Positions 5,414 through 23,971 of a DNA stretch of 36,043 nt are shown here, one piece after another. This DNA comes from an uncultured Oscillospiraceae bacterium. GTDB taxonomy: Bacteria > Bacillota > Clostridia > Oscillospirales > Acutalibacteraceae. Position 1 is the first letter of the stretch. Each line of letters starts with the position of its first letter. The stretch spans positions 1 to 36,043 of the forward strand of contig USLV01000001.1 of assembly GCA_900555705.1 (NCBI GenBank). The letters are read 5' to 3'. A program made the position numbers and the translations under genes. The notes below the pieces were generated by a model. The model was not told the origin of the DNA, did no database searches, and saw only the letters and a list, made by a program, of their open reading frames with translations.

Positions 5414-7201
5414 CTATTCTGTGAGCGTCCGCCAATTCACGTTCTGGAATCGGGCCGCACCTTCAGCAACCTGCACGCCGATATATCCTCGGAGCGCCTG
5501 CATATGGCTAAATTGACATATCTCTTTGCCATTCAAAAAAATTGTTAACAATGAACCGTTTAGATGCAATACAAACCGAAAGCTCTCTCCAACTCGTATA
5601 CCGGTGGGGATTTTAATCAAATCACCGGCCGGTTCCCATACCTTGAGTGTGCCGTCAGCATCCATCACTACACAGGTAAAGCTGCTTAGATCTTGTGCAG
5701 CACGAGTCACCAGCATCGCGCCACCGGTGTTTAGTAAGGTGATATCTGCTTCTAATTGACCGTCGTCATAGATCTCAGAAGAAAGCAGCGCTGCGGTTTG
5801 GTCGGCAACACCCTCCGCTCCGTTATCGACTTCCCGCCAAGACATCCCCATGGGCTTCAATCCAGGGATATTACTGATAAATCCAGGGTGGACACAATGG
5901 AAACGGCAATGGGCGGCATGTTCTCCGTCGGCGGTGATGGCGGATAGTTCGGTTTGCCCGGGTATAAGCCCCTCCCAAACGGAATGGTCATCGTTTTCTT
6001 CAACCAGTGACACCGCGCAAGGATCATATGACCAAATGTAACGACCCGAAACAGCCTGACGAATTGGCGGGTGGGATGGCAGGGTAAACCGTTTGCCGGG
6101 CTTACCGGCCAGGTTTATTCTGTACGGCAAATCATCCCGCTTTTCTCCAATCGATATGGCAAGCAGGGGAGATCGAGTATCGCTTAAAGATGTCAGCAGA
6201 TATTCCAAAATCTCTCTTTCCCAAATGGCAGCCTGTTCCAGCGGCGCCATCACCCGATTGACCAGCCGTTTGTCGAAAGTGGTATAGAGTTTTAGCAGCA
6301 GCATTTTTGCCTTTCTTGCATTTTTGACCACTTTGCGATATTGAGCGTAAATATATTCTGCATTCGCCAGATAACCCAGTTCTCCCAGATGTCGAATCCG
6401 ATCGCTCATCAACTCTTTATGCTCACAGATGACGGATATAAACCGATAGTCCAAAAAGCAGCCGGTTTCCACACATTCCTGTAAAAAGGACTGAAACGCA
6501 TTATAAACTGACATCCCATAAGTGTAATATATCTGGTGTTCCCGTATGATATCGTTGGGAAAGATGTATTCGTAGCTGTTGACACTGTCCAAATAGTCTC
6601 GAATTCCCCGACGAATCAAAGGGATGTTGAGAACGTGATCGCGAGGATACCAACAGAGGAATTCAATTCCATTTCCCTGATATTTTTGTGCAACCAGTGA
6701 CGGTGCTTCTCGAAACGCGATTTCCATACTGGCGTAGTCCACCGTCATGCGGGTATACTGTTTGTTTTCATTATATGATACCACATAATACACTTCCTGT
6801 TCATCGTCATATCCATAGATGAACAGGTCGTGAAAGTTGTGCCAGCTTTTATAGGGCCGGGTATGTGGAATATAATATTCGTCCACTTCAAGATAAGGGT
6901 AATTCCCGACATCAATGTTTTCCCGCAGAAATTCGATCAACGTACAACTGCGGCGGGCAAGCCATGCCCGGCTGACCCGTTGGTAATAAACAAACGGACA
7001 GGCTTTCCAGACGGAATAGGGAAAGTAGAAATCCGCACGAAAATCTTTCTTATCCGTTGTGTCTGTCTTAACGGTTAATTGAATGTAATTGTTATAAAGC
7101 CATGTGTCGGCTTCCGCATGGTTGAGGACAATTCCAAGGATATCCGCATGGTAGTGGTAGCATTTGACAGGAGTATCGGCAAGGGGCAAGATTCGTTTCA
7201 T
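5414..7201 (-). CDS. Multidomain protein: an N-terminal BtrH_N / DUF4872-like domain (papain-like fold; acyltransferase or peptidase), then an Ig-like segment and a concanavalin/LamG-like C-terminal domain
   Basis: The long ORF has AT-rich codon usage. N-terminal features are ...VKCYHYHADILGIV... and ...LEVDEYYIPHTRPYKSWHNFHDLFIYGYDDEQEVYYVVSYN..., which match my recollection of BtrH_N. A helical region then resembles DUF4872. The C-terminal beta-rich region ends ...IFLNGKEICQF...GYIGVQVAEGAARFQNVNWR. Start set at ATG 7201 (MKRILPL) with GAAAGGTGG 8 nt upstream; the tracked start at 7213 is a GTG. Confidence 0.55.
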   Translation of the reverse strand: MKRILPLADTPVKCYHYHADILGIVLNHAEADTWLYNNYIQLTVKTDTTDKKDFRADFYFPYSVWKACPFVYYQRVSRAWLARRSCTLIEFLRENIDVGNYPYLEVDEYYIPHTRPYKSWHNFHDLFIYGYDDEQEVYYVVSYNENKQYTRMTVDYASMEIAFREAPSLVAQKYQGNGIEFLCWYPRDHVLNIPLIRRGIRDYLDSVNSYEYIFPNDIIREHQIYYTYGMSVYNAFQSFLQECVETGCFLDYRFISVICEHKELMSDRIRHLGELGYLANAEYIYAQYRKVVKNARKAKMLLLKLYTTFDKRLVNRVMAPLEQAAIWEREILEYLLTSLSDTRSPLLAISIGEKRDDLPYRINLAGKPGKRFTLPSHPPIRQAVSGRYIWSYDPCAVSLVEENDDHSVWEGLIPGQTELSAITADGEHAAHCRFHCVHPGFISNIPGLKPMGMSWREVDNGAEGVADQTAALLSSEIYDDGQLEADITLLNTGGAMLVTRAAQDLSSFTCVVMDADGTLKVWEPAGDLIKIPTGIRVGESFRFVLHLNGSLLTIFLNGKEICQFSHMQALRGYIGVQVAEGAARFQNVNWRTLTE

Positions 7202-7222
7202 AAGATAGACCACCTTTCATTT

Positions 7223-7240
7223 ACAGATGACGCCATCTGT
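7223..7240. promoter_or_regulatory. Palindrome in the promoter region of the 5414-7201 gene; possible operator
   Basis: ACAGATG-ACGC-CATCTGT has perfect 7-bp arms. It lies 22 nt upstream of the ATG, between the tandem terminator-like elements and the RBS. Confidence 0.3.
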
Positions 7241-7269
7241 TAACAAGGGCAGACACGGTCTTTCGGGAT

Positions 7270-7349
7270 AAAAATAGGCGCTGGCGGCGTTGTCCTCGTT
7301 GCCGGGCGTTAGCCCGGCGGCCTCGTCCGCCTTGCCAGTGCCCGTTTTT
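7270..7349 (-). terminator. Copy 1 of a duplicated long-hairpin element flanked by an A-run and a T-run; bidirectional terminator-like
   Basis: AAAAAT, then GGCGCTGGCGGCG...GCCGGGC-GTTA-GCCCGGC...CGCCTTGCCAGTGCC, then GTTTTT. The outer arms pair imperfectly and the apical hairpin is perfect. See copy 2. Confidence 0.4.
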
Positions 7350-7383
7350 CTACCCGAAAAACTCCACAGGACCGGACGGCGGT

Positions 7384-7464
7384 CAAAAAGGGCGCTGCCG
7401 TCGTTCTCGGATTTGGCGGGCGTTAGCCCACCTGTATCCTGTGGCCTTGCCAGCACCGCCTTTT
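7384..7464 (-). terminator. Copy 2 of the duplicated long-hairpin element; probable terminator of the SDR/ABC operon
   Basis: CAAAAAG, then GGCGCTGCCGTCG...GGCGGGC-GTTA-GCCCACC...GGCCTTGCCAGCACCGCC, then TTTT. It starts 53 nt downstream of the SDR stop at 7517. On the minus strand the hairpin is followed by CCCTTTTTGACC. Confidence 0.45.
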
Positions 7465-7516
7465 GTTCCGCTGTCCGACGTGTTTGTCCTTGTCAACCGA
7501 TGGTGACCTGCTCGTT

Positions 7517-8257
7517 TTATAGAATACGGGCATCCAGATGAAACGTCTGCCCGCTGACACCGCTGAAACAATCGGACGCGGCATAAAGCAAAAAATTCAC
7601 CAGATCATCCAGCGCGTCCGTACCATCCAACACACTTTGCTTTCTGGCCCGTGCAACCTTGTCCTCCCGACCATCATTAAGGCCGGTCTGTATAAACCCG
7701 GGGCAGACACTGTTGACAAGAATGTTATGTGCTCCCAGTTCTTTTGCCAGAGACTTGGTAAAGCCCGCGATAGCCGCCTTGGAGGTGGCGTAATTGCTTT
7801 GTCCCGCACTGCCGATCTGACCCATTAAAGAGGAAATATTAAACACCTTGCCCTTGCGGCGTGTTCGCATGTGTACGGTAAAGTATTTGCAGCATAGAAA
7901 ACAGCCTGTCAAATTTACGTCAATCACCCGCTGCCATACCTGTGTCTGCATATGTTCTACCGAATCGTCAGCACAAATACCGGCATTGTTGATCAAAACA
8001 TCCACATGCCCGAAATGCGCCAATGCCTGATCGTATAGAAGCCGTACGTCCTCCTCTCGCGATACATCCGCTTTCACTATCAGACAATCGGTCTGATGAG
8101 ATATATCCCGATATAGTTCCAGAGCCTCCCGCTCGCTTTGGCAGTAGTTGATGACGACATGTGCGCCCTCCCTTGAGAATGCGCGTGCCAGCGCACTGCC
8201 GATGCCTCTCGAGGAACCGGTGATCACCACAACTTTATCTTTCAAATTAATAATCAT
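7517..8257 (-). CDS. SDR-family oxidoreductase, 3-oxoacyl-ACP reductase (FabG)-like
   Basis: MIINLKDKVVVITGSSRGIGSALARAF carries the TGxxxGIG motif. NNAG is present, and the catalytic S...YxxxK appears as SNYATSKAA. 246 aa. Confidence 0.9.
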   Translation of the reverse strand: MIINLKDKVVVITGSSRGIGSALARAFSREGAHVVINYCQSEREALELYRDISHQTDCLIVKADVSREEDVRLLYDQALAHFGHVDVLINNAGICADDSVEHMQTQVWQRVIDVNLTGCFLCCKYFTVHMRTRRKGKVFNISSLMGQIGSAGQSNYATSKAAIAGFTKSLAKELGAHNILVNSVCPGFIQTGLNDGREDKVARARKQSVLDGTDALDDLVNFLLYAASDCFSGVSGQTFHLDARIL

Positions 8258-8273
8258 AGCGATATCCTATTCA

Positions 8274-10091
8274 TTATGAGATTTGGACACCCGACATATA
8301 TTTCTGCCCCTGTAGATGAAACAGATACGCATACTGTCCGTCCAAAGCCATCAGCTCCCGATGAGAACCGTTTTCTATGATCTTTCCGTTCTCCATCACC
8401 AAAATACGATCCATCAGCACGGTATTGGACATTCTGTGTGAAATCATCAGCAAGGTTTTATTCTCATACAGTTTCTTGAAATACGCCAGTATCCGATGCT
8501 CCGCTTCCGGGTCGAGAGAGGCGGTTGGCTCGTCCAAAATAATGGTATCAGATCCGCGAAAGACCGCGCGGGAAATAGCCAGCTTCTGGTTTTGTCCTCC
8601 GGACAGCTCCACGCCGTCCGGATCAAATATTTTGCCGACAAAAGTGTCCAGATTGCCGTTTCGATCAAAAATATCGTTGTGAAAATCAGAAAAGGCGAGG
8701 GCATCCCATATCCGGGCGTCGTCCTGCGTGTTGGCGGGATTGGATACGCCCACATTTTCTCTCACAGTAAAAGCATATACGTTATAATCCTGAAACACAC
8801 TGGACAGGCGGGAACGCAGGCTTTTGATATCCAGACAGCGCACATCCATGCCGTTGATATAAATAGAACCGGAATCGGGTTCATAAAATCGCATCAGCAA
8901 TTTGATAAGCGTAGTTTTACCGGAGCCGTTAATGCCGATGAGCGCGACCTTTTCTCCTTTGTTGATATGAAAGTTCACGTGGCTGAGAACCTGGCGGGCG
9001 GTACCGGGATAAGTAAAGCAGACGTCCCGAAATTCAATGGAGTTGATGGCATTGATCCGGAGCTCTCCCGAGGTCACCTCGCTTTCACTCAACAGGAAGT
9101 AGCGTTTGAAGTCCTCTATTTTCTGGTTATAACCGATATACATCGAGATGCTGCCGATCAAGCCGCTGATTCTGCCGGACAAGTTGCCGTAGAGGCCGGG
9201 GATATAGTTCAGATCGCCCAGCGTATAGGTGCGCCCGATAATCCGTATGATAATATAAACCTGTATACCAATATTCAGGGCTGTTTGCGGCAGTCCAAGG
9301 AGGATATTGATAAAATTATTTTTCTTGTTAAAGGATTTGCGCCGCAGGAACAGCTCTTTGTCCTTTTTTAAAAATCGTGCCAGCAACGTATCGGCCATGC
9401 CGAAAAAGCGCAGCTCTTTGGCCGCCTTTTTATTGAACAGCAGCGAGTGGATATAGCCGTTCTGCCGGTCCTCCCGGAAAATGCTTTTGTCAAACTCATA
9501 CCGCCGTTTCTCCAGTCCCTTTCTGAAAAGGAAGCTGGGGATCAGCGACAAAAAGGTAAGCAGTGTCAGCCAGACGTTGATCCGCAGGGTCAGTATCAGC
9601 GCCGTAATCAGGTTGACGATAGTAGTGAAGGTGCCAACGGTGGAAAACACAATTTCATGCATGGCATGAGAATTGTTGCGGCTGCGCGACATATCATCAA
9701 ACTTATCCGGTATATCGAAATAAGAGATATCGATATCGGCCGATTTCCTCATCAGGGAAATATTGATATAGGTTAACAGATTCTGAGTCTGCAGACCGGA
9801 TATTTTTCCGCCGAAATCGCTGATAAAGGTTACCAGAATACTGATGCCGAAATATAAAACCAGGCTGGACACAACGGAGGCCCATAGCGAAGCGTCGCCG
9901 GTCACATCGGTGCTCAGGATAGCCGAAATGTCGTCAATGATTCCCTTCATCACGTACATGTTGAAGAAAGGTACGATTCCCGTTATGAGGTTGATGGTCA
10001 TAATAACGAAAAAATTGCATTTATTGGCCTTAAAAACCAATTGCAGGCAAAAGGCGTAATTGCGAATGAAATTTTTCAGCTTTCCAATCAT
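8274..10091 (-). CDS. ABC exporter, fused permease and ATP-binding subunit (half-transporter B)
   Basis: 605 aa with an N-terminal 6-TM-type domain. Walker A is GINGSGKTT, the signature is LSGGQNQK and Walker B is IILDEP. Its ATG overlaps the upstream gene's TGA (ATGA at 10091-10088). There is no N-terminal C39 peptidase domain. Confidence 0.9.
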   Translation of the reverse strand: MIGKLKNFIRNYAFCLQLVFKANKCNFFVIMTINLITGIVPFFNMYVMKGIIDDISAILSTDVTGDASLWASVVSSLVLYFGISILVTFISDFGGKISGLQTQNLLTYINISLMRKSADIDISYFDIPDKFDDMSRSRNNSHAMHEIVFSTVGTFTTIVNLITALILTLRINVWLTLLTFLSLIPSFLFRKGLEKRRYEFDKSIFREDRQNGYIHSLLFNKKAAKELRFFGMADTLLARFLKKDKELFLRRKSFNKKNNFINILLGLPQTALNIGIQVYIIIRIIGRTYTLGDLNYIPGLYGNLSGRISGLIGSISMYIGYNQKIEDFKRYFLLSESEVTSGELRINAINSIEFRDVCFTYPGTARQVLSHVNFHINKGEKVALIGINGSGKTTLIKLLMRFYEPDSGSIYINGMDVRCLDIKSLRSRLSSVFQDYNVYAFTVRENVGVSNPANTQDDARIWDALAFSDFHNDIFDRNGNLDTFVGKIFDPDGVELSGGQNQKLAISRAVFRGSDTIILDEPTASLDPEAEHRILAYFKKLYENKTLLMISHRMSNTVLMDRILVMENGKIIENGSHRELMALDGQYAYLFHLQGQKYMSGVQIS

Positions 10092-11950
10092 ACCGTCACC
10101 CCCGCCGCCTCATCCACGAAATTCGAAGCCTGCAGATTGAACAAATACGCATACCGTCCGTTTCGTGCCATCAGTTCTTCATGGGTGCCATCCTCCAGCA
10201 CCACGCCATCCTCAATCACCAGGATTCGGTCCATCAGCGTTGTATTCGACAGCCGGTGGGAGATCATCAGCAGGCCGCGACCGCTATACAGCCGCTCAAA
10301 CTGTCGGAGGATTTCATATTCCGCCACTGGGTCGAGAGAAGCGGTTGGCTCGTCCAGAATCACCATATCCGCCTTGCGGAACGCGCCGCGGGCAATGGCC
10401 AGCTTTTGCTTTTGCCCGCCGGACAGCTCCAGTCCATCGTCTGAAAAATCCCGGCTGATATCGACGTCAAGAGAATCTATTCGTTCCAGAATGCCATGAT
10501 CCAGTTCGGCGAGAGTCAACGCCTCCCGGATGCGGGCGTCGTCCTCCCGGTTTTCATAATCTGACATTGCCACATTGTCTCTCACACTGAGCGAATAGGT
10601 GATATAATCCTGAAATACCGTGGAAAACACCTGGCGCAAGCTATTTAGCGTATACGCCTTGATATCCAGACCGTTTATGAGAATCTGTCCCTCATCCACA
10701 TCATAAAATCGCAGCAGCAGCTTGACAATGGTAGACTTTCCGGCGCCGTTCAGTCCAACCATGGCAATCTTCTCATGGCCCTGAATCCGCAGATTCAGAT
10801 GGTTCAGAACCGGCTGTTCTGTCAGCGGATAGGTGAACATCACATCTCGGAATTCAATGGTTTCCAGCTTTTTCAGTTTTCTTGTTCCGTTGTCCGGCAC
10901 AAAGGCCTTCAGCTTCATAAAGGAATCATATTTTTCAATGGTATAAGAGGTCTCGCCCAAACGCGCGATATTGTCAACGAGGTTGGTAAAGCTGCTCTTC
11001 AGGGTCGAAGTCATCCCGAGCAGATAGGCGAAATCGCCGATGGCGTTGCGTCCCTGAAAAATGCCCAGCAGCACCATGTACATGCTGATCCCGATCCCAA
11101 TCGTAGGCAGCATATTGCACAAGGAGTCCGCAAATCCCAGACGAACCGTCAGCCTTCTTTTTCCGCTGATATACGTGTTCCAATGCTGCCTGTATTTGTC
11201 CACCACCATATCGGACATGTCGTAAAACCGGACCTCCTGTGCGGTTTGCTTGCCCATAGCCACTCCGGCCAGATAGGAGACGCGGCGCATGATATTCTGG
11301 GTCTGCAGACCGTACTCGAACTGACGGCGAAGATACCGGCCCCGTGTGAAGAGAGGCGGCAGGGTAAACAGAACAATCACCAACGGAATCCAGGCATTGG
11401 TGGACAAAATGGTAACGGTGGTAGAGATGACAAGCGAGATCGTATTAATGATAAAGCTGAGGGTTCTCGTATACAGGACGCTCAACTGGGATTTCCCATT
11501 ATTGGCCTGCTCAATATGGTCATAATACCGGTCGTTGTCAAAATAGGAGATGTCGAGCGACGCCACTTTTTGTGCCATTTCCGTGTTGATATACTGATTG
11601 AAGCGGAGCTGCTGGGTTTCCCCGATCAACGAGGAAGCAAAATTGAGCAGGGTGAGGCCGAGAGAGAGCGCGGTAGAAACCAGTATCCAGAAACCCACCG
11701 GTTCCACCGCTTCATGGAAAGACCAGTGATTGATCAGCGCGAAGCTGAGGGTGTTGATCAGTTCCCTGCCGCAGTACATGAGCACAAAAGAGGACAGGGT
11801 ATTGATCAACGTGACGATTGTGGTCACCACGAAGAGACCGGGACTCGACATAAAAACCTTTTTGACGGAAAATGCGAGGAGCTTTAATAAAGCCAGCCGA
11901 CCGCCGGTATCCTTTTTATTCTTTTCAGAGGCAGAGGGGCCCTTTACCAT
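10088..11950 (-). CDS. ABC exporter, fused permease and ATP-binding subunit (half-transporter A)
   Basis: 620 aa. Walker A is GLNGAGKST, the signature is LSGGQKQK and Walker B is VILDEP. It is translationally coupled to the next ABC gene, which suggests a heterodimeric exporter. Confidence 0.9.
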   Translation of the reverse strand: MVKGPSASEKNKKDTGGRLALLKLLAFSVKKVFMSSPGLFVVTTIVTLINTLSSFVLMYCGRELINTLSFALINHWSFHEAVEPVGFWILVSTALSLGLTLLNFASSLIGETQQLRFNQYINTEMAQKVASLDISYFDNDRYYDHIEQANNGKSQLSVLYTRTLSFIINTISLVISTTVTILSTNAWIPLVIVLFTLPPLFTRGRYLRRQFEYGLQTQNIMRRVSYLAGVAMGKQTAQEVRFYDMSDMVVDKYRQHWNTYISGKRRLTVRLGFADSLCNMLPTIGIGISMYMVLLGIFQGRNAIGDFAYLLGMTSTLKSSFTNLVDNIARLGETSYTIEKYDSFMKLKAFVPDNGTRKLKKLETIEFRDVMFTYPLTEQPVLNHLNLRIQGHEKIAMVGLNGAGKSTIVKLLLRFYDVDEGQILINGLDIKAYTLNSLRQVFSTVFQDYITYSLSVRDNVAMSDYENREDDARIREALTLAELDHGILERIDSLDVDISRDFSDDGLELSGGQKQKLAIARGAFRKADMVILDEPTASLDPVAEYEILRQFERLYSGRGLLMISHRLSNTTLMDRILVIEDGVVLEDGTHEELMARNGRYAYLFNLQASNFVDEAAGVTV

Positions 11951-12083
11951 AATAGTTCACCAGCCAATTCTGTATAATCAACGGCCAGTCAGGATGACTC
12001 CGTTTCCTCGCCCGGACTGGTCGAAAAATTTGCGCCGTTAATGATCCGCCGTGGGAGACAACTCGCGTTGAAGCCGGAACAGG

Positions 12084-12118
12084 AGCCGGGTATACGCATT
12101 GGATGGGTATACCCGGCT
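12084..12118 (-). promoter_or_regulatory. Stem-loop between the precursor genes and the ABC genes (second of two)
   Basis: Perfect 12-bp stem AGCCGGGTATAC (12084-12095) / GTATACCCGGCT (12107-12118) with an 11-nt loop. No clear T tract on either strand. Confidence 0.35.
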
Positions 12119-12165
12119 GTCCATGTTATGTCATGATCCTTGGGAAACGGTTTATTTCCATATTT

Positions 12166-12193
12166 CCCGTGGCGGGTAACGTCCCGCCACGGG
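12166..12193 (-). promoter_or_regulatory. Stem-loop downstream of the last precursor gene; possible attenuator or processing site
   Basis: Perfect 11-bp GC-rich stem CCCGTGGCGGG (12166-12176) / CCCGCCACGGG (12183-12193) with a 6-nt loop. On the minus strand it is followed by AAATATGG, not a T tract. Confidence 0.4.
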
Positions 12194-12285
12194 CATGGTT
12201 CAATGTTCTCTCAGCCGTCCGGCCCAGCGCTGCTGCGCAGGGCCGGTGAACGGCGTGAGGTTATTATACCGTGACCAAAGGGATG

Positions 12286-12468
12286 TTACTTCGAACCGCC
12301 GGAACAGTCACCAGAGCAGCTGCCAGCGCAGTCGCCGGAGCAGGTTCCGGCGCAGGTTCCGCCGCATGCGCCCTCGCAATCGCCGGAGCAGGTTCCCGAG
12401 CAGGTAAACCAGCAGCTGCTGGCGGCCGCCACAAAGTCCGTGTTCTGATTGCCCAACATATAGGTCAT
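12286..12468 (-). CDS. CXXX-repeat RiPP precursor peptide 3 (60 aa, 10 Cys at strict i+4 spacing)
   Basis: MTYMLGNQNTDFVAAASS-CWFT-CSGT-CSGD-CEGA-CGGT-CAGT-CSGD-CAGS-CSGD-CSGGSK. AAGGAGG lies 7 nt upstream of the ATG. I verified the translation by hand from the DNA. Confidence 0.85.
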   Translation of the reverse strand: MTYMLGNQNTDFVAAASSCWFTCSGTCSGDCEGACGGTCAGTCSGDCAGSCSGDCSGGSK

Positions 12469-12598
12469 AAAAACGCCTCCTTGTTATGGTTTCAATCGTC
12501 CAAGCTATTGGGATACATTGTTCACACCATATCTTGTGTATGCTCGCTCAGTATGGCTCCTGTCGCATCGCAGCCTGGACAGTAAAGGACCGAAAAGG

Positions 12599-12760
12599 TT
12601 ACTTTGAGCTCGCGGTACTCGAGCGGCAGCTGCCATGACAACTGCCCTTGCAGCCGCCATCGCAATTGCCCGCGCAGGAACTATAACAGCTGCCCGTACA
12701 ACCGTCACAGGAACGGGCCACCGGAGACATTGCATCGGCTCCGCCCAGCAAATAATTCAT
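12599..12760 (-). CDS. CXXX-repeat RiPP precursor peptide 2 (53 aa, 8 Cys). It is below the length cut-off of the supplied ORF track.
   Basis: Hand translation from ATG 12760 gives MNYLLGGADAMSPVARS-CDG-CTGS-CYSS-CAGN-CDGG-CKGS-CHGS-CRSSTASSK, ending at TAA 12601-12599. AAAGGAGG lies upstream. The tracked ORF 12505..12735 is in a different frame and is Ala/Arg-rich. Confidence 0.8.
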   Translation of the reverse strand: MNYLLGGADAMSPVARSCDGCTGSCYSSCAGNCDGGCKGSCHGSCRSSTASSK

Positions 12761-12848
12761 GAGAAGTCCTCCTTTCTGCTAAGATGGATCCGCTATGTAT
12801 GCCAAACGGATCGACTCTTTGAGAGCCCCGCCTGTCGGCGGACGAAAG

Positions 12849-13031
12849 TCATTTCGAGCTGCCTGCGCAGCTGTCTTTGCAGGAACCGTGGCAGTCGCCA
12901 CTGCAGGCCCTGGCGCAGGCAGCCTCACAATCGCTTGTGCAGGCGGCCGTGCACCCGCCGCTGCAATAGTGAATGCACCAGCCGGCAGCCGGTATAAAGG
13001 CACCCTGATTTTGGCCAGTTAAATAGGTCAT
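12849..13031 (-). CDS. CXXX-repeat RiPP precursor peptide 1 (60 aa, 10 Cys at strict i+4 spacing)
   Basis: MTYLTGQNQGAFIPAAGW-CIHY-CSGG-CTAA-CTSD-CEAA-CARA-CSGD-CHGS-CKDS-CAGSSK. AAAGGAGG lies upstream. The leader start (MTY-x-x-G) and the C-terminal SK are shared with the paralogues. Confidence 0.85.
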   Translation of the reverse strand: MTYLTGQNQGAFIPAAGWCIHYCSGGCTAACTSDCEAACARACSGDCHGSCKDSCAGSSK

Positions 13032-13172
13032 GTGTTTTTTCCTCCTTTCAAAAAGACTGGTTCATCTTTTAGGCCGATGCTGCTTTGAGAAACAGGCAGA
13101 CACCGCCCGGCTAATCAAACATGGGAATCACCCCCTTTTCGGAGGAATCTCCTATTCTTGTCCGCATAGGAC

Positions 13173-14483
13173 TCATACTGAAGCCATATGATTTACAAAA
13201 AAATTCAGCTTTTTGCTGCCGACGTCGGGGGTGATCTCCTTCACATACGTGAACGTCCAACGGGTGTTCCCAAAGCCGTAGGGCTCGAGCGCTTCCAGAA
13301 AACGGGTGCGAATCTGCCGGTCCAGCTCGTCGCATTGCCTGTCCGCCGGCACAACGAGCTGCAGCTCAAAGTCGGAGATGTCCTTTTGGATCGCCCGGAA
13401 CTGCAAAATGCATTGGTCAAGATAGGTGTTGACGGCCTCCACGGCATAAAACATAATGACGCATTCTATCTCCGTGCCGTCCGGCCGGGTGATCAATTCG
13501 TTGCCGCGCCCGGCCTGCACGTCCAGAATCGGATGAATATTGCCGCAGGAGCAGCTCTCTCCCGGAAGCAGCCGGGCACGGTCGCCCAGATCATAGCGGA
13601 TAAAGGGCATGGCCTTGTTGTTCAGTCCTGTGACGCAGACATTACCCACTTCCCCCGGCGGTACAGGGCGGCCATTTTCTATAATTTCCACATGCACGTT
13701 GCGGGGCATCACATGCAGGTGTCCTTCGGCACATTCGAACGCAATGCCGTTGACCTCCCGGGCGCCGTATTCGTTTACTGCCGGCACCTGCATGATCTCC
13801 TCAATCGCCTGCCGGCAGGCGGGCTGTAAGAACTCGCCGGCCAGTTCAATATATTTTAAGCTTTTGATCGGCGGCAGGCCGTGGGACTGCATATGGCGGG
13901 CCAGCAGCAGGACGGTGGAAGGATGCCCCATCATCCACTCCGGTTCGAACTGAACGATATGGCGATAGTATGTATTGAGCGCTCGTTCGCTGAAATCGAG
14001 TTTGCTGAACGACAGGACAATGCCGTTTTCCCGCAGCATGATGCGAGGTGAGAACACCTGCTTGACGGTTTCACTCACATCGTTTCCCTCGTCGTCGAGT
14101 CCGCCGCTTTCCCGATAAGCAATTGAATGGAAAAACACGCATTTTGAATCCGGCATAATACCGAAGCGCTGGCGACGCCGTGACCAAAGGCTCATCAGGG
14201 AGCGAATATGCTGGTGCTTTTCCCAGTAGATGTCCAGGATTTTGCCGGTTGAACCGGAGGTCCGATCATGCAGAAGATCCTTTTTGCTGTATTCGTCGGA
14301 GAGAAAGTCGTCCGCTCTGGCGCGTACATCCTCTTTTTTCACAATGGGGAGCGATTCGAAAACCGACGCAATATCCTGACTGTCCGGTCGGATGCCGGCC
14401 CTGTCATATAGCTCTCTGTAAAAGGCTGTGTGACGGTAAGCGTACGCTACCATATCCGACAACTTGTCCTGATACTTATCCAT
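13173..14483 (-). CDS. Adenylate-forming enzyme of the phenylacetate-CoA ligase (PaaK) / F390 synthetase / CapK family
   Basis: MDKYQDKLSDMVAYAYRHTAFYRELYDRAGIRP...LPIVKKEDV...DRTSGSTGK is the typical PaaK-like N-terminus and P-loop-like motif. Start set at ATG 14483 with GGAGGG 8 nt upstream. It overlaps the ACP stop by 8 nt. Confidence 0.8.
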   Translation of the reverse strand: MDKYQDKLSDMVAYAYRHTAFYRELYDRAGIRPDSQDIASVFESLPIVKKEDVRARADDFLSDEYSKKDLLHDRTSGSTGKILDIYWEKHQHIRSLMSLWSRRRQRFGIMPDSKCVFFHSIAYRESGGLDDEGNDVSETVKQVFSPRIMLRENGIVLSFSKLDFSERALNTYYRHIVQFEPEWMMGHPSTVLLLARHMQSHGLPPIKSLKYIELAGEFLQPACRQAIEEIMQVPAVNEYGAREVNGIAFECAEGHLHVMPRNVHVEIIENGRPVPPGEVGNVCVTGLNNKAMPFIRYDLGDRARLLPGESCSCGNIHPILDVQAGRGNELITRPDGTEIECVIMFYAVEAVNTYLDQCILQFRAIQKDISDFELQLVVPADRQCDELDRQIRTRFLEALEPYGFGNTRWTFTYVKEITPDVGSKKLNFFVNHMASV

Positions 14484-14739
14484 TTGTCGAGCCCTCCGCC
14501 GACAGCGCCTGCCGCACATATTCCCACAGCTTGCCATACGAGGTCAAAATTTCATAGTCCAGCATATCGTCGTCAAATTCGATGCCGAACAGGTTTTCGA
14601 TATCCACTACCAGTTTGACAAAGCTGATGGAGTCAAATTCCAGATCGTCGACCAGATCCGTTTGTTCATTGATGTCTTCGTGGGTCAACTCCTGTCGTTT
14701 CGCCGAAACCAGCACCAGGTCCTTGAGTTTAGCTTCCAT
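14476..14739 (-). CDS. Acyl carrier protein
   Basis: 87-aa acidic protein with the phosphopantetheine attachment motif LEFDSISFVKLV (DSI/DSL type), followed by helices typical of ACP/PCP. Confidence 0.85.
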   Translation of the reverse strand: MEAKLKDLVLVSAKRQELTHEDINEQTDLVDDLEFDSISFVKLVVDIENLFGIEFDDDMLDYEILTSYGKLWEYVRQALSAEGSTNG

Positions 14740-14760
14740 GGTATTTTCCGCCTTTCTACT

Positions 14761-15087
14761 TTATTGTGCTTGCTGTTCCTTTGGCTTTGAAAAGATTATC
14801 TTTTTATGAACGTCAACCAACAACAGACTGTTTTCATCATGTACCAGCATGTATTTCTCGTCCATCCGTTGCCACCATTTGGAGAAAGCACGGTAGGTAT
14901 CCCGGTAAAGCTCGCGATAGGAGGGCGCTTTCTCCAGCCCCACCTCCGCCATCAGCTCCGGATGATCCTTTAAGCCCAGCCGCAGGCTGTGGTAGGCAGA
15001 AAGACGTTCCAGAAGAACGATATATTCGTCGTTTTCCTCTTCCGTAATGGAGACCGGCTGCATCAACTCATACATCATATTTTGCAT
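14761..15087 (-). CDS. Small helical partner protein of the maturase; candidate CXXX repeat peptide modification system protein
   Basis: 108-aa ORF. AGAGGTG lies 6 nt upstream of ATG 15087, inside the 3' end of the rSAM gene, giving a 20-nt overlap. No recognisable catalytic motif. The family name is recalled from NCBIfam/TIGRFAM naming and was not verified. Confidence 0.5.
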   Translation of the reverse strand: MQNMMYELMQPVSITEEENDEYIVLLERLSAYHSLRLGLKDHPELMAEVGLEKAPSYRELYRDTYRAFSKWWQRMDEKYMLVHDENSLLLVDVHKKIIFSKPKEQQAQ

Positions 15088-17224
15088 TTAACACACCTCT
15101 GTTTGAAATATAGATATCAATAAACGGGTCGTCGTACGTCGGCTTATCATCCGACTGGATCAGCTGCTTCTCCAACAGGGCCTTTTTGAGCTTTTGGGAA
15201 ACGGCATGATTGAGATGGCTGATCCGACATTGGATTCTGGGCGAGATCGCGAGTTCTCTTGTGCCGGCTTTATGAAGATACATGCAGCGGTTGCAGATCT
15301 TGACGTCACAGCTTGTGCACAAAGGAGAGGCGTCCCGACGGCAGAATTTGCTCTGCGACAGATCGATGCCATGCTCAAGGTCTCCAATGCTGTCCATTCC
15401 GTTAAAATAAAAGGCGGGGCAGATATAGAATTTCCCGTCCGGTGCCAGCGCGGCAGTGGTCGCACCGGCAGAACAATCGATTTCATTGGTTTTGTCAAAT
15501 GCATCCGTCAGCAAATTCAGAGCAGGCTTGCAGCCCGCTTCATACTGCTCGATCAGATAATCAGAGAGCGTTTCCAGCTGTTCTTTATACAGCGCGTAGT
15601 CCGCTTCCTTCCAAGACAACAGATCCTGCAGAAAAATGTTCAGTCTGGGCGACTTGACGAACAGAGCTTTTGCCATATCCGCCATATTCGACAGCGTATT
15701 GCGGGAAACCAGCAGAATGGTGGCCTCACCGCCCTCGAAACCATCATATACCTGATTGTCATGAACCGTTATGGTGCCTGCTGCTCCGTCTCTGTCGGCG
15801 CCGTTGATCTGAAAATACATATTATCCACCTGGTTCAGCCCATGATCGCATTCGCCGAGGAACACAGGAACCAACTGGTTATCGGTGCAATAGGCCAGTC
15901 CCTTTTTCAAAACTTCTTCGGACATTACTACATCGCTTTCGGGCCGGGATTCATAGGAGCAGTGAGGCGTGATATTGTCGGCGGTAATGAAATACAGATG
16001 CTTCAGGCCGATATTTCCTATCGAATTGGCTTTGGCGGTGGTAAGGGGAGCGGTCTTGCCCGTCGCCTCGCTGTACCGTTTCCAGAAATACCGATTGGCC
16101 CGGGCATTTGCTTTGTGCATATTGCAAAGAGAGATGGTGCGTTCAAAGATGGTATCCTTATCCGATGCCTCATAATTATGGGCTACGCACCATCCGCAGC
16201 CGAGTCCCACATCACAGGTATTGCAGTCATGCGGACTTTGGGATTTCCAGTCCAGCGAGATAAAAGAACGAAGCATGTCCATATTGATACCGTGTTCGAT
16301 ATCTCCCACAGTGAGCTTCTGATGGCCGGGACTGAAGCACATCTGCAAAAAGCGGATACAGGGATAAATAGATCCTTCACTGTCAAAGGCAAACGTCTTG
16401 TATCCCGCGCCGCAGCGATTACGATTCAAAGCCTCTGTTGTAACCGGAAGACCTACGGTAGCATTAAAAAAGGAGGTCGAAACCTTGTCCCACAGTTCAT
16501 TTTCAATTACGTAATCCGCCAGTTCCATGAGCTGATTCTCGAAAATGACATCGTCACCCTCCTGCCAGACATCTTCGTACACCAGATTCGCGGTAGCGAT
16601 AGAAAGACCGGTGTTCCAGAGATGAATGATGCTGTCTTTTAAATAGGGCAGGTCGGCGTGGGCAAAGGTTGCCTTTGTACTGGCACCCGGGAATTGACGC
16701 AACCAAAGCGGAACGTTTTTGATGACATCGTCATACGAGCCGGTACCGTCAATCTTCTTTCTGGACAAGTCGTGCTTCTCTTTGTTGCCGTCCAGACTGA
16801 TGGTGAACGAGCAGTGTCCTTCGTGCTTCTTGAAATAAGCCTGTACCTTTTCTTTATGATACAGTGTTCCGTTGGACGAAAAGGAAAACCGGTATCGATC
16901 GAACCACTTATGGCCGGTCGCGTACATCTTTGCTACAATATAATCGCTGATTTTATCGATGAGGTCGATCTCCAGTAACGGCTCGCCGCCTATAAAATCC
17001 CACACAACGGCGTCTTCGCTACAGATATAGGGATCTTCCAACACGTAATCTACGATCTTTTTCGCTGTTTCATAGTTCATCACATGAAACTCATTTTTGC
17101 CTACCATGTAGCAATAGGTACAACGGAGATTACAGTCCTCTGTCACGCAGAATGTCAGGGTCACACATTTTCCGCTGCGCCATGACTGGGCCCCCTGTGC
17201 CATATAGACGTTTGCATCATACAT
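15068..17224 (-). CDS. Radical SAM/SPASM peptide maturase (CXXX-repeat target type) with a long C-terminal extension carrying a second SPASM-like Cys cluster
   Basis: The CNLRCTYCY motif (CxxxCxxC) is near the N-terminus, followed by GGEPLL. The first SPASM region is ...RCGAGYKTFAFDSEGSIYPC...CNTCDVGLGCGWCVAHN. The second is ...CSAGATTAALAPDGKFYICP...CTSCDVKICNRCMY.... Start set at ATG 17224 (MYDANVY) with GAGGAAG upstream. It overlaps the ligase stop by 8 nt. Confidence 0.88.
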   Translation of the reverse strand: MYDANVYMAQGAQSWRSGKCVTLTFCVTEDCNLRCTYCYMVGKNEFHVMNYETAKKIVDYVLEDPYICSEDAVVWDFIGGEPLLEIDLIDKISDYIVAKMYATGHKWFDRYRFSFSSNGTLYHKEKVQAYFKKHEGHCSFTISLDGNKEKHDLSRKKIDGTGSYDDVIKNVPLWLRQFPGASTKATFAHADLPYLKDSIIHLWNTGLSIATANLVYEDVWQEGDDVIFENQLMELADYVIENELWDKVSTSFFNATVGLPVTTEALNRNRCGAGYKTFAFDSEGSIYPCIRFLQMCFSPGHQKLTVGDIEHGINMDMLRSFISLDWKSQSPHDCNTCDVGLGCGWCVAHNYEASDKDTIFERTISLCNMHKANARANRYFWKRYSEATGKTAPLTTAKANSIGNIGLKHLYFITADNITPHCSYESRPESDVVMSEEVLKKGLAYCTDNQLVPVFLGECDHGLNQVDNMYFQINGADRDGAAGTITVHDNQVYDGFEGGEATILLVSRNTLSNMADMAKALFVKSPRLNIFLQDLLSWKEADYALYKEQLETLSDYLIEQYEAGCKPALNLLTDAFDKTNEIDCSAGATTAALAPDGKFYICPAFYFNGMDSIGDLEHGIDLSQSKFCRRDASPLCTSCDVKICNRCMYLHKAGTRELAISPRIQCRISHLNHAVSQKLKKALLEKQLIQSDDKPTYDDPFIDIYISNRGVLNAKYDV

Positions 17225-18728
17225 TGTGTACTTCCTCGTTTCTTTTTGTTTTTCCGTTATAGGTTTTTGCCAGCGCTTTGACAAATTCGATCCTGCGAGG
17301 CGCTTTATAGCCGGAAAGCCTGTCCAGGCAATAGTTAATCAGCGCCCCTTCGCTAACCTCCTCTCCCTCCTTTATAACAATCTTGGCGCATGGCAGTTCT
17401 CCCATATATTCATCCGGCACGCCGTAAACCATGACGTCCGCCACACAAGGATGACTGAATAACACCTCTTCTACTTCCTCCGGGTAAATGTTGATTCCGC
17501 CGCTGATAATCATATTTTTTCTGCGGCCTGTCAGGTAGAGATAGCCTTCTTCGTCCAGCCGGCCAAGATCGCCGGTATACAGCCAGCCATTCCGTAAGAC
17601 AGCGGTTGTGGCGGAATCATTTTTGTAATACCCCTTCATTACGTTTTCGCCGCGCACTACAATTTCGCCAATTTTTCCATGATCCAAAACCTGTCCCTGT
17701 TCATCCACCACGGCTACCGTTACACCGGGAATAGGTCGTCCAACCGAACCCAGCTTGCGAACAGAATCTTCCGGCAATAAGGCGGTTACACGAGGAGATG
17801 CCTCTGTTTGCCCGTAGGTTTGCACAAAACCAACAGTGGGGAAGGCGCTGATCAGTTGCCGCAGCTTATCCACCGGCATTTTTCCTCCGCCAAAACAGAT
17901 ATACCGGAGAGAATGGATGTCGTATTCCTCTCGGCGGCGATAATCCAATAGGGAGAGCAGCATAGTGGGTACGCCTGTAAAATTGGTAACGCGGCATGTC
18001 TCCACAGCAGAAAAGAATTTCTTTGCAAGAAACATTCCTTCCAAAATCACCATAGATGCCCCCAGGTAAACATGAGTCAGGAACTGCGCCGTGTTACAGT
18101 ATCCAAAATACATGGGGAGGGCAATGAGAACAACATCATCTGCATTTAGAGAAAGGGAAGCGATGTTGGAACGTATATTGCACAACAGATTTTGATGAGT
18201 GAGCATTACCCGCTTGGGATGACTGAGTGTTCCCGACGTATGTAACATTACAGCAGTGGCATTTCGCCCTTCGTTATCCGCGACGCCTGCGGTCTTGATA
18301 ATCCATCCTTTTTCTCCTGCCAGCTTGGTCACATGCAAGGTATCTGTGTTTAGCAGATAGATCGAGTAAGGATAAGACTCTAATATCTGAGTTAATCCCG
18401 GTTGCAGCGCTGAATTGGTGATTATCAGATCAATTTCACAATTTTCCAGCGTGCTCCGTATCTCCGGCCCTTTGGACTGAGGGCCAATGGGTATAATAGT
18501 TCTATTTGCATATAGAATTCCAAAATATGAAACAGCATAGGCAATGGAGTTGGGCAAAAATAATGCCACATGGCATGAACTTGGAGACAGGCATCGAGAG
18601 AGAGAAATGGCTATATTTGTCGCTTTTGCATGCCACTCACGGTAGGATAGCCGTTGTTCTCCTTGCGTAATCGCCGTTTTGTCGTGGTATTTCCAGCGCG
18701 ACAATAGTCCACAGAGATGATCTATCAT
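17217..18728 (-). CDS. Class I adenylate-forming enzyme (acyl-CoA/acyl-ACP synthetase, ANL superfamily)
   Basis: ANL core motifs are present: LHTSGTLSHPKRV, YGQTEASP, GWLYTGDLGRLDEEGYLYLTGRRKNMIISGGINIYPEEVE, and a C-terminal YNGKTKR. Start set at ATG 18728 with AAGGAGGG 8 nt upstream. Confidence 0.88.
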   Translation of the reverse strand: MIDHLCGLLSRWKYHDKTAITQGEQRLSYREWHAKATNIAISLSRCLSPSSCHVALFLPNSIAYAVSYFGILYANRTIIPIGPQSKGPEIRSTLENCEIDLIITNSALQPGLTQILESYPYSIYLLNTDTLHVTKLAGEKGWIIKTAGVADNEGRNATAVMLHTSGTLSHPKRVMLTHQNLLCNIRSNIASLSLNADDVVLIALPMYFGYCNTAQFLTHVYLGASMVILEGMFLAKKFFSAVETCRVTNFTGVPTMLLSLLDYRRREEYDIHSLRYICFGGGKMPVDKLRQLISAFPTVGFVQTYGQTEASPRVTALLPEDSVRKLGSVGRPIPGVTVAVVDEQGQVLDHGKIGEIVVRGENVMKGYYKNDSATTAVLRNGWLYTGDLGRLDEEGYLYLTGRRKNMIISGGINIYPEEVEEVLFSHPCVADVMVYGVPDEYMGELPCAKIVIKEGEEVSEGALINYCLDRLSGYKAPRRIEFVKALAKTYNGKTKRNEEVHNV

Positions 18729-18813
18729 GTGAAAACCCTCCTTAATATAGATATAAGTATCACGCATATATATATTACATCACATAATTTGATAAAATCA
18801 TTCCTTTTATGCT

Positions 18814-18842
18814 ATTATATTTGAAAAATAAAACAATGTCAA
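18814..18842 (-). promoter_or_regulatory. Consensus sigma-A promoter of the RiPP operon
   Basis: Minus strand reads TTGACA (18842-18837), a 17-nt spacer, then TATAAT (18819-18814). A very AT-rich UP-like tract lies upstream. The -10 box is about 85 nt upstream of the first ATG at 18728. Confidence 0.65.
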
Positions 18843-19294
18843 TAATATTAAATAAAATAATAAGATATTCGACAAAAAATATTGTTTTTATATTGTGGAC
18901 AAATTTCCTTGTCATATTTATGGAGGGTGACCGATGTGCAGAAGTTGAATGGGAAAGAACGATCTTTCCGCTTCCTGTGACATCTAAGTCGGCAGATTCG
19001 AAGGTGAAATGAGATGTTGCGTGTTGATCGGCATACTTTTGCAATGCGTCTCAACCCCTTACGGGTTAACACATGTCGCATGTTTTTTGTCCTGTGCCAT
19101 ATGGAAAAGAGCAGGTTCCAGTCAACATACATGATCGTTTCCATGGACGGAAAGCACTGGATCAGGAAATAGCGGCTGCAGCATGCGGGGATGTGTCTGA
19201 ATTCTGTTAAGTGACGAGCCGTTAGCACGGAACGGTACATGTCTTTTATATAGATTTTATTGCATGAGTACGAGACTGGTCGTTTGATTTTCCT

Positions 19295-19328
19295 TATAAA
19301 ACAAAGAACCGGGCTTTTAGCCCGGTTC
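19295..19328 (-). terminator. Rho-independent terminator (minus strand)
   Basis: GAACCGGGCT (19306-19315) pairs with AGCCCGGTTC (19319-19328). On the minus strand it is followed by TTTGTTTTAT. Confidence 0.6.
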
Positions 19329-19930
19329 CGCGACACTGCGAACTTTTTTCTTTTTTCAGATCCTGATAATCATCAAAAGCTGTGATGAAACAAAAGAGCG
19401 AAAGAAATTTTCGCTGACGTTGACGGCCCTGGCAAGGCCGGCCGCGTTGTAAACAGTAGATGGAAGAATCATCTGTGAAAGCGATCTGCACAGTGGGTTT
19501 CGTATGGTTTCATCGAGTCACGATAAAATAACCTCTGCCAAGTCCTGGCGGATTTTGTGCTCTGATGGTGCAGGATTGACGGAGGTTTTTAGCTCTGTCA
19601 CAGCAGACTGACCCGACAAGTGAATGTCACCCCAACGAACATCTACAGGTGATACCTTGACCAATAGATAGTATCCCACGAATCGGATTTCCGGCAAGCG
19701 CACCTGCATCGCACAGCGATGGTATGGGACTGTTTTACGCGCATCATTTACGTAAATAACCAAAGCCTAGATAAGATAATATCTGCGCTTTGATTATTTG
19801 TTTTGTTGTAACAGAGTAAATGAAAACAGCCTTTCGGCTGGCATGGTCACTTCACAATGTCGTCGCTATCCACACGGGTTTCTGCCCTTTTGAACAATTT
19901 TCCCAGAACCCTGCGGTTCGCCGCCTGCTC

Positions 19931-19974
19931 CTACAATAAAGAAAAGAACAGCCCGCCCTGTCGGGCAGACTGTT
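19931..19974 (-). terminator. Terminator of the tRNA operon; bidirectional appearance
   Basis: Stem AGAACAG (19943-19949) / CTGTTCT (19968-19974) with an inner CCCG/CGGG helix. It is followed by TTTCTTTATTG on the minus strand and by TTTTTT on the plus strand. It lies directly downstream of tRNA-Val. Confidence 0.6.
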
Positions 19975-19981: not shown

Positions 19982-20058
19982 TGGTGGGCGTAAACGGACT
20001 CGAACCGCTGACCTCTTGCGTGTGAAGCAAGCGCTCTAACCAGCTGAGCTATACGCCC
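19982..20058 (-). tRNA. tRNA-Val (anticodon CAC), CCA encoded
   Basis: The reverse complement is GGGCGTATAGCTCAGCTGGTTAGAGCGCTTGCTTCACACGCAAGAGGTCAGCGGTTCGAGTCCGTTTACGCCCACCA. I folded the cloverleaf by hand; the anticodon loop is TTCACAC. Confidence 0.9.
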
Positions 20059-20066
20059 GTAAAAAA

Positions 20067-20141
20067 TGGTGACCCGGACGAGAATCGAACTCGTGTTACC
20101 GCCGTGAAAGGGCGGTGTCTTAGCCGCTTGACCACCGGGCC
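20067..20141 (-). tRNA. tRNA-Glu (anticodon TTC), CCA encoded
   Basis: The reverse complement is GGCCCGGTGGTCAAGCGGCTAAGACACCGCCCTTTCACGGCGGTAACACGAGTTCGATTCTCGTCCGGGTCACCA. The anticodon loop is CTTTCAC. Confidence 0.9.
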
Positions 20142-20144
20142 AAA

Positions 20145-20221: not shown

Positions 20222-20251
20222 ATATAAAGCCCCACAAAAGGGGGCCTTGTT

Positions 20252-21102: not shown

Positions 21103-21175
21103 ATGTCAGGACCATTCCTTTCTCTGCACTTTCTGCCGGTTCCGTACAGACGAGCGGCAGCGGGTTTGCACATGG

Positions 21176-23951: not shown

Positions 23952-23971
23952 ATGGGTTTGTCTCCTTTCCG

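Follow-up and report, generated by a model that had tools for sequence, protein, structure and literature searches.

Why would an operon for cysteine-rich ribosomal peptides carry its own enzymes for activating and holding acyl groups? We addressed this question for a 36,043-nucleotide stretch of DNA from an uncultured Oscillospiraceae bacterium (GenBank assembly GCA_900555705.1, contig USLV01000001.1), referred to as the window. It contains a minus-strand operon for a peptide made by the ribosome and modified after its translation (RiPP), in which a radical S-adenosylmethionine (rSAM) maturase of the CXXX-repeat type is combined with an ANL-superfamily ligase, an acyl carrier protein (ACP), a PaaK-like ligase, and a FabG-like short-chain dehydrogenase/reductase (SDR). 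An initial annotation, made from the sequence without database searches, had proposed that these acyl genes are a built-in module tailoring the peptide. That idea is strengthened by three features: the operon closes with a putative transacylase gene, the precursor peptides invariably terminate in Lys, and the cassette is present in other rSAM RiPP families. Our favored reading, to which as a whole we would give about an even chance of being right, is that the peptide is acylated from acyl-S-ACP, most likely on the C-terminal Lys of rSAM-made Cys-repeat peptides. We use cassette for the following set: ANL ligase, ACP, PaaK-like ligase, sometimes a FabG-like SDR, and a papain-like transacylase of the CtaG/BtrH/CcbD type.

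A CXXX-repeat maturation system with acyl-activating enzymes

The rSAM enzyme (718 amino acids, 15068..17224) exceeds the cut-offs of both TIGR04115, the CXXX-repeat maturase family (489.5 bits; cut-off, 350), and TIGR04119, the CXXX_matur family (226.8 bits; cut-off, 150), the latter domain being fused at residues 502-704. It carries a CX3CX2C motif and seven SPASM cysteines, and eight more cysteines form a second set within its C-terminal half; all of these are invariant columns in an alignment of its relatives, in line with the initial description of one SPASM domain and a second SPASM-like cluster. Its nearest solved structure is CteB (5wgg), and a homologue search returned more than 4,000 homologues. 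The 108-amino-acid partner protein (14761..15087) scores 35.1 bits against TIGR04116 (E 1.1e-8), below the cut-off of 50. Its homologues are syntenic, lying after the rSAM gene, in four related loci (L003, L004, L089, and L090), and judged by profile match and position it is probably a divergent TIGR04116 member. The proposal of a CXXX-repeat maturase and partner stands: homology identifies the rSAM/CXXX_matur enzyme and its small partner as the two maturation proteins of the CXXX-repeat RiPP system, which is defined bioinformatically, with the partner below the cut-off yet conserved in position.

The three predicted substrates also agree with the initial annotation, each having 8 to 10 Cys at strict four-residue spacing. 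Precursor A (12849..13031) has 60 amino acids and 10 Cys, ends in AGSSK, and matches TIGR04117 with an E value of 1.3e-5; precursor B (12599..12760) has 53 amino acids and 8 Cys and ends in ASSK; precursor C (12286..12468) has 60 amino acids and 10 Cys and ends in GGSK. Against TIGR04114 and TIGR04117, the precursors score just under cut-off. Each gene has its own GGAGG ribosome-binding site, and the Cys repeat is visible in the DNA as a 12-nucleotide (nt) periodicity (repeat family D1; precursor C).

Profile matches upheld the assignments of all four proteins of the acyl module. The ANL-superfamily adenylate-forming ligase (503 amino acids, 17217..18728; PF00501 and PF13193) has FadD13, oxalyl-CoA synthetase, and MenE as its best solved relatives, and every CXXX locus with the cassette encodes an orthologue (47-55% identity). 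The ACP (87 amino acids, 14476..14739; PF00550 at 36 bits) contains the sequence LEFDSISF, an FDS motif with the conserved Ser. The PaaK/CapK-like adenylate-forming ligase (436 amino acids, 13173..14483) matches the DVU_1553 family at 121 bits and then PaaK, with PaaK 4r1l as its nearest solved structure (E 9e-25); its P-loop TSGSTGK and C-terminal Lys are invariant among homologues in an alignment. An ACP-PaaK pair is present in every cassette examined, and the two genes overlap by 8 nt in the window. The SDR (246 amino acids, 7517..8257) matches PF00106 and, at 218 bits, TIGR01830, and its best PDB matches are FabG structures.

Two narrower assignments were set aside. The ANL enzyme was rejected as a fatty acyl-AMP ligase, as it aligns end to end with the CoA ligase FadD13, oxalyl-CoA synthetase, and MenE, leaving no room for the insertion of about 20 amino acids that is specific to fatty acyl-AMP ligases. 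The top NCBIfam match of the ACP is AmcB, which suggested a link to cispentacin; this lead was dropped, with a score of 37.7 bits against a cut-off of 80 and with AmcH not described as PaaK-like.

Co-conservation of the cassette with one rSAM clade

The gene set ANL-rSAM-partner-ACP-PaaK-precursors-ABC-ABC-SDR, where ABC denotes ATP-binding cassette transporter genes, recurs in L001/L002, L003, L004, and L086/L087, whose rSAM enzymes are 97%, 55%, 52%, and 49% identical to that of the window, respectively. L089 (51%) keeps the same gene order up to the contig end, which falls in the first ABC gene, and in L090, a short contig, the rSAM is accompanied by an ACP and a PaaK-like ligase. The SDR is found wherever the contig reaches far enough (L001, L003, L004, and L086), although it is relocated upstream in L003. 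Surroundings differ among these loci, with Rnf and tRNA genes in the window, rpsB-tsf in L086, and a helix-turn-helix gene in L003. The module accordingly accompanies the rSAM clade in five sequence-distinct relatives at 49-55% identity and in differing surroundings, as expected if it is built in.

In a neighbor-joining tree, all module-bearing rSAM enzymes fall into one clade, with the cassette-free L085 as its sister. ANL, ACP, PaaK-like, and SDR genes are absent from L085, L088, and the six canonical loci L005-L010 (rSAM identity, 36-46%). These canonical controls, from Clostridium, Faecalibacterium, and others, are six full-length fused rSAM homologues among the matches listed in a genome-contig profile scan. 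Conversely, a reciprocal search of JGI metagenomes with the PaaK-like ligase as the seed found two loci, both with rSAM, partner, and ACP genes directly upstream, and all PaaK-like homologues of at least 43% identity that could be placed lie in a CXXX rSAM context. A PaaK-profile scan of viral contigs gave no match.

Comparative genomics thereby shows, at the level of gene content and order, that the cassette was inserted into the CXXX system and inherited together with it. The initial annotation had allowed that the ACP, ligase, and SDR genes might be an unrelated pathway never co-conserved with CXXX precursors; the co-conservation observed here contradicts this. A chance neighborhood is very hard to credit on these grounds. 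Each enzyme family is generic, the only point we found in its favor, whereas co-conservation with gene overlaps extends across lineages of about 50% identity in different contexts, and the reciprocal search gave rSAM-linked loci only.

A papain-like protein at the end of the operon

All genes of the initial annotation were recovered as open reading frames at the positions given, all on the minus strand, as are the other operon features described here. The operon extent of 7517-18842, however, holds only at its upstream side; the unit runs on to 5414 through a gene for a 599-amino-acid protein (5414..7213). This protein passes PF14399 (BtrH_N) with 36.5 bits against a cut-off of 29.7, and its C-terminal part, a CBM66-like beta-sandwich, matches PF06439 (3-keto-disaccharide hydrolase). 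An AlphaFold model of moderate confidence (pLDDT 72.8), built on 8 sequences, shows an alpha/beta region at residues 1-190, helices at 197-342, and then the beta-sandwich. Foldseek matched the first ~350 residues to CcbD (7yn2/9dkr; E about 1e-6, TM 0.55 on the target, probability 1.00), including the entry for the complex of CcbD with a peptidyl carrier protein (PCP), and also to AziU3/U2 (probability 1.00), while the C-terminal sandwich matched CBM66 (4b1m, E 2e-10). A profile search of PDB sequences returned a marginal AziU3 match alone (E 1.3).

In this model, the N-terminal part resembles papain-like, carrier-protein-dependent amide-forming enzymes such as BtrH, AsbE, CtaG, and CcbD. CcbD is a carrier-protein-dependent enzyme that acylates an amino sugar in lincosamide biosynthesis. 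A 2026 study of closthioamide (PMC12865890) grouped CtaG, AsbE, and BtrH as papain-like ligases using carrier-protein-bound donors, in which the acyl group moves from the carrier protein to the ligase Cys and from there to an amine, a free one in the case of AsbE and BtrH. Homologues of the window protein stand at the operon end in L001, L003 (513 amino acids), and L086 (334 amino acids, with a GNAT gene before it) and accompany the cassette outside CXXX loci in L091, L097, and the Clostridium perfringens plasmid locus L100. In the window and in each of these six loci, the gene is encoded with a carrier protein and a loading enzyme. His128 and Asp136 (in a GYD motif) are invariant in alignment A4, and Cys72, an alternative to the presumed nucleophile Cys18, is invariant in alignment A3 and absent from the L086 and L091 homologues.

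An insertion of about 268 bp (7231..7498) separates the SDR gene from the BtrH_N gene and is absent, by blastn, from the 97%-identical L001, where the BtrH_N gene starts about 35 nt after the SDR. The insertion is GC-rich and holds a 45-nt repeat (core GGGCTAACGCCCG) in two copies, with a T-run after each copy. Possible identities are a small mobile repeat and a terminator by which the last gene would be uncoupled in part.

A papain-like fold would also suit a missing C39-like leader peptidase, in which case any acylation would fall to another enzyme, at the new N-terminus or at Ser/Thr. The operon encodes no other protease, its ABC transporters have no C39 domain, and the L091 homologue weakly matches Peptidase_C39_2. 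We nevertheless regard this role as improbable, because L091 carries an S8 peptidase besides its BtrH_N protein and canonical CXXX loci need no BtrH_N gene; the cassette-free loci share the leader motif M-x-[YF]-L and yet lack it. The BtrH_N protein is, moreover, physically linked to ANL-ACP-PaaK even outside RiPP clusters, and its best structural matches are amide-forming enzymes, not peptidases.

Precursor C-termini and cysteine chemistry

Within CXXX loci, a C-terminal Lys is found in all precursors of cassette-bearing loci (18/18), in a tail of the form x-G-[S/A]-K or G-S-S-K, and in none of the precursors of cassette-free loci (0/11). Tails of the latter are mostly hydrophobic (LLFG, IIKAIFG, GFMF, GLWGST, and LILYILSED), so that canonical CXXX precursors and those of the window clade differ at the same end, by hydrophobic residues in the former and G-S-K in the latter. 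The Lys persists while the peptides change. Window and L001 precursors are 68-77% identical and their enzymes 95-97% identical, which suggests that the cores are diversifying fast; the L001 orthologues nevertheless have the leader, the Cys frame, and the terminal S-K in common with them. Among the nearest relatives of the cluster, precursor repeats are mostly C-X2-C rather than C-X3-C. L001 also encodes a fourth precursor of 85 amino acids and 16 Cys (14186-14443), which is absent from the window at 13032-13172.

A conserved last residue would also be expected if an adenylating enzyme recognizes the C-terminus, and the peptide could then be the acyl donor rather than the acceptor. The PaaK-like ligase would adenylate the Lys carboxylate and load the peptide on the ACP, and the papain-like enzyme would transfer the peptidyl group to an external amine or form a macrolactam, with the ANL ligase and SDR making the amine partner or another cap. 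The invariant, translationally coupled ACP-PaaK core of the cassette suits this scheme, as does the PapB literature, in which enzymes related to the window rSAM recognize peptide C-terminal carboxylates. It is a quite unlikely scheme in our judgment: known CtaG/AsbE/BtrH/CcbD members transfer small acyl or aminoacyl groups, PaaK-family enzymes characterized so far activate small acids, and the exchange of hydrophobic tails in cassette-free relatives for G-S-K in cassette-bearing ones would be left unexplained.

The PapB/freyrasin ranthipeptide system, which forms Cys-to-Asp/Glu thioethers (PMC12373016; PMC10739248), likewise acts on Cys-repeat substrates. By profile, PapB (NF047865) is the nearest biochemically characterized family to the N-terminal domain of the window rSAM, at 205 bits and thus under the cut-off of 340, and the window enzyme differs by its extra CXXX_matur domain. 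The window cores have 2 to 4 acidic residues per 8 to 10 Cys. Among the relatives' cores (L003, L004, L086, L089, and L090), 10 of 11 contain no Asp or Glu and the eleventh contains just one acidic residue. Cys-to-Asp thioethers of the PapB type therefore cannot account for the clade in general, and the acceptor chemistry must differ. Since the C-terminal residue, too, can be joined to Cys by PapB (PMC12373016), the precursor C-terminus may have a role in crosslinking. The Cys chemistry is presumed to consist of rSAM-made thioether or related crosslinks, and the term polythioether in the initial annotation is to be read as a prediction.

The cassette in other peptide clusters and on plasmids

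PaaK-like homologues of 30-37% identity lie in other RiPP or peptide clusters. L091/L092 combines ANL-ACP-PaaK with a CcpM rSAM enzyme, a TIGR04066 protein, CLI_3235 precursors, ABC genes, an S8 peptidase, and a BtrH_N protein. The same CcpM/CLI_3235 RiPP family is joined by ANL-ACP-SDR-PaaK in L099 and by ACP-PaaK in L098. A third setting is L093/L094, where ANL-ACP-PaaK accompanies a 39-amino-acid peptide, four rSAM/B12-rSAM enzymes, and PqqD. By this distribution of genes, the ANL-ACP-PaaK cassette is portable, recurring in three different RiPP families. The ANL and SDR of L099 are 55% and 53% identical to those of the window and the ANL of L093 is 52% identical; for L099, this is as close as within the CXXX clade, which suggests that the same acyl chemistry moved between systems. 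Lys is also the last residue of all five precursors of the CLI_3235 type from CcpM loci with the cassette (FWK, FWK, YHK, GGK, and GGK).

Cassette-bearing CcpM loci also encode a protein of 84-95 amino acids after the TIGR04066 gene (L091, 9367-9633; L098, 13502-13756; L099, 10058-10345). Its length and helical pattern are carrier-protein-like, and it has no Pfam match. In the L091 and L099 proteins, D-L replaces D-S, so the usual Ser is missing.

Other occurrences come without visible RiPP genes. L097 consists of an ACP, an ANL ligase, a BtrH_N-like protein, and a PaaK-like ligase, and the C. perfringens plasmid NZ_CP075936.1 (L100) carries an overlapping four-gene unit, BtrH_N-ANL-ACP-PaaK, at 30638-34684. 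The neighbors of the plasmid unit are a HAD hydrolase and an adenylation protein of the nonribosomal peptide synthetase (NRPS) type, and such plasmids, of about 70-75 kb, occur in many C. perfringens isolates. From its gene content, the L100 unit looks like an uncharacterized thiotemplated pathway related to the window cassette.

Such units raise the possibility that the product of the cassette is a distinct small molecule, regulated and perhaps exported jointly with the peptide and not covalently joined to it, for example, a thiotemplated amide as on C. perfringens and Bacillus cereus plasmids. The occurrence of BtrH_N-ANL-ACP-PaaK units in clusters without visible RiPP genes (L100 and L101; L097) speaks for this explanation, which we rate as unlikely. 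In the window, the cassette is interleaved with the maturase genes: ANL overlaps rSAM, and ACP and PaaK stand between the partner and the precursors. The cassette also recurs in three different RiPP families, and the precursor C-terminus shifts systematically with its presence.

A proposed route to a lysine-acylated peptide

Under peptide acylation, the favored reading, one adenylating enzyme would first charge holo-ACP with a carboxylic acid; constant pairing with the ACP makes the PaaK-like ligase the better candidate for this step. The other ligase would then, together with the SDR, elaborate the ACP-bound unit by attaching or activating a further building block and by converting a keto group to a hydroxyl. 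Finally, the papain-like enzyme would transfer the acyl moiety of acyl-S-ACP to one of the peptide's free amines. The best candidate among these belongs to the C-terminal Lys, invariant in the tail x-G-[S/A]-K, and is its epsilon-amine. The acyl group would in this way functionally replace the hydrophobic C-terminal tails encoded by cassette-free relatives.

A broader claim can be framed across all of the clusters: that a small (hydroxy)acyl unit is assembled on a carrier protein by a mobile thiotemplated cassette and attached to the C-terminal Lys epsilon-amine, and that rSAM RiPP families of at least three unrelated kinds (CXXX-repeat, CcpM/CLI_3235, and multi-rSAM/B12) have each acquired this cassette independently. 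We advance this claim tentatively, as a possibility that falls somewhat short of probable.

Several observations weigh against peptide acylation or limit it. Every step, acylation included, rests on prediction. The Lys correlation is essentially one evolutionary event because the module-bearing CXXX loci are one clade, and the matching observation in CLI_3235-type precursors covers cassette-bearing loci alone. In L093, the multi-rSAM locus, the cassette is present, yet the predicted precursor terminates in Trp and a BtrH_N gene is not seen; nor was one found in L004, L098, or L099 within the DNA examined. For the 599-amino-acid protein, the structure model is of moderate quality, and the candidate catalytic residues are ambiguous: Cys18 of the window protein is Ser, Thr, or Ala in several homologues, and only His128 and the GYD motif are invariant. 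The insertion between the SDR and transacylase genes of the window contains terminator-like T-runs. In addition, the data do not explain the need for two adenylating enzymes, and the operon contains no ketosynthase to supply a 3-oxoacyl substrate for the FabG-like enzyme.

Relation to known systems

The closest known counterpart is the CXXX-repeat rSAM system (TIGR04115, TIGR04119, TIGR04116, and TIGR04114/04117), which is known bioinformatically only. Besides the rSAM and CXXX_matur matches above cut-off, the window shares with it a syntenic partner, Cys-repeat precursors with an M-x-[YFH]-L leader start, and an ABC exporter, although the partner and the precursor repeat fall under the cut-offs of the respective models. 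Canonical loci in Clostridium, Faecalibacterium, and on an Anaerococcus plasmid lack the ANL, ACP, PaaK-like, SDR, and BtrH_N genes.

With CtaG (closthioamide), AsbE (petrobactin), BtrH (butirosin), and CcbD (lincosamides), the 599-amino-acid protein shares a papain-like N-terminal domain, a helical region, and a gene position near an adenylating enzyme and a carrier protein. The arrangement of adenylating enzyme, carrier, and papain-like protein mirrors the AsbC-AsbD-AsbE logic of petrobactin biosynthesis. Unlike the known members, the window protein has a CBM66-like C-terminal domain and an N-terminal Cys that is not conserved among homologues. The acceptors of the known members are small amines or carrier-bound aminoacyl groups, not ribosomal peptides.

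Acylated RiPPs are represented by lipolanthines, goadvionins, selidamides, and lipoavitides, in which the acyl group comes from a dedicated supply module; in selidamides, it is placed on a Lys or Orn side chain. These pathways use GNAT acyltransferases together with polyketide synthase (PKS) or fatty acid synthase (FAS) machinery, and their scaffolds are of the lanthipeptide or nitrile-hydratase-leader type. Profile scans found no GNAT acyltransferase and no PKS/FAS genes in the window, and a GNAT gene appears only in the relative L086. The window differs from these pathways by its papain-like transferase, its rSAM Cys-repeat scaffold, and two stand-alone adenylating enzymes feeding one ACP. 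The initial annotation had presented the architecture as a candidate for an uncharacterized class, and no description of this exact architecture was found in the searchable full-text literature, subscription-only papers lying outside the search. Acylated RiPPs and papain-like thiotemplated ligases are each known, and their combination on an rSAM Cys-repeat scaffold with an invariant C-terminal Lys was not found in that literature.

The CXXX-repeat and CcpM/CLI_3235 families are large, though we found no characterization of their products. Because presence or absence of the cassette tracks one precursor residue, the comparison predicts, in a testable way, where the peptide is modified and by which enzyme. 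If correct, peptide acylation by this cassette would join RiPPs to the recently recognized papain-like carrier-protein-dependent ligases, two fields that are now separate, and thiotemplated ligases of the papain-like type would gain ribosomal peptides as a new class of acceptor. It would also offer a modular, transferable route to acylating peptides at the C-terminal end. The producers are uncultured anaerobic Bacillota known from metagenome assemblies only, and the products could be new antimicrobial or signaling lipopeptide-like molecules.

Operon architecture and genomic setting

The promoter proposed in the initial annotation at 18842-18814 reads TTGACA-17-TATAAT, a sigma-70 consensus with 12 of 12 matches, and downstream of it an AAGGAGG ribosome-binding site lies 5' of the ANL start ATG at 18728. 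Tight packing was equally evident, with overlaps of 8 nt (ANL/rSAM), 20 nt (rSAM/partner), 8 nt (ACP/PaaK), and 4 nt (between the two ABC genes) and a gap of 16 nt from the second ABC gene to the SDR. Larger intergenic gaps (141, 88, 130, and 335 nt) are confined to the precursor flanks. The last of these, between the precursors and the transporter genes (11951..12285, about 335-340 nt), is highly structured: folding of 11951-12290 gave a minimum free energy of -140 kcal/mol (z = -6.1 versus shuffles) with two long hairpins. Strongly folded spacers after the precursors are typical of RiPP operons that uncouple precursor and enzyme mRNA levels. By its predicted fold, the spacer may act in attenuation or mRNA processing and so set the ratio of precursor to enzyme.

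Beyond the spacer lie two ABC half-transporters without peptidase domains, one of 620 amino acids (10088..11950; PF00664 and PF00005) and one of 605 amino acids (8274..10091; domain and NCBIfam matches). Type-1 exporter models are their top NCBIfam matches, and the genes are kept in all relatives, including the cassette-free sister L085. From these matches, they are presumed to be the exporter of the peptides.

The block from about 5.1 to 19.9 kb has 40-55% GC, versus about 60% in the flanks, and lies directly downstream of a tRNA Met-Glu-Val cluster. With this low GC content, the RiPP operon was probably acquired horizontally. A tRNA-linked integration of the island was considered and rejected for want of a recognizable att site: a repeat search of the window found no second tRNA-Val 3' end, no long flanking direct repeats, and no att-like site. 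The tRNA cluster (19982-20280) is served by a separate promoter with a perfect match to the consensus (20280-20252) and is closed by a strong terminator (19979-19942), and an Rfam scan of the window returned the three tRNAs and nothing else. Between the tRNA-Val terminator and the operon promoter lies an AT-rich stretch of about 1.1 kb (18848-19940; 40-46% GC) with no Rfam match and no Pfam-matching open reading frame; a 162-amino-acid frame in it, also called in L001, is without a known domain.

Just downstream of the operon, in higher-GC DNA, is a family-2 glycosyltransferase gene (4009-5106) with a near-consensus promoter at 5048-5020. It is probably a host gene, although it may be linked to the peptide; a large GT2 protein also ends L099. 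Elsewhere, the window contains two separate Rnf-type operons (20290-25300 and 30175-33644), the second more divergent, and the sporulation genes SpoVAC and SpoVAD (845-2315). Together, the predicted Rnf and SpoVA genes indicate a spore-forming anaerobic member of the Bacillota.

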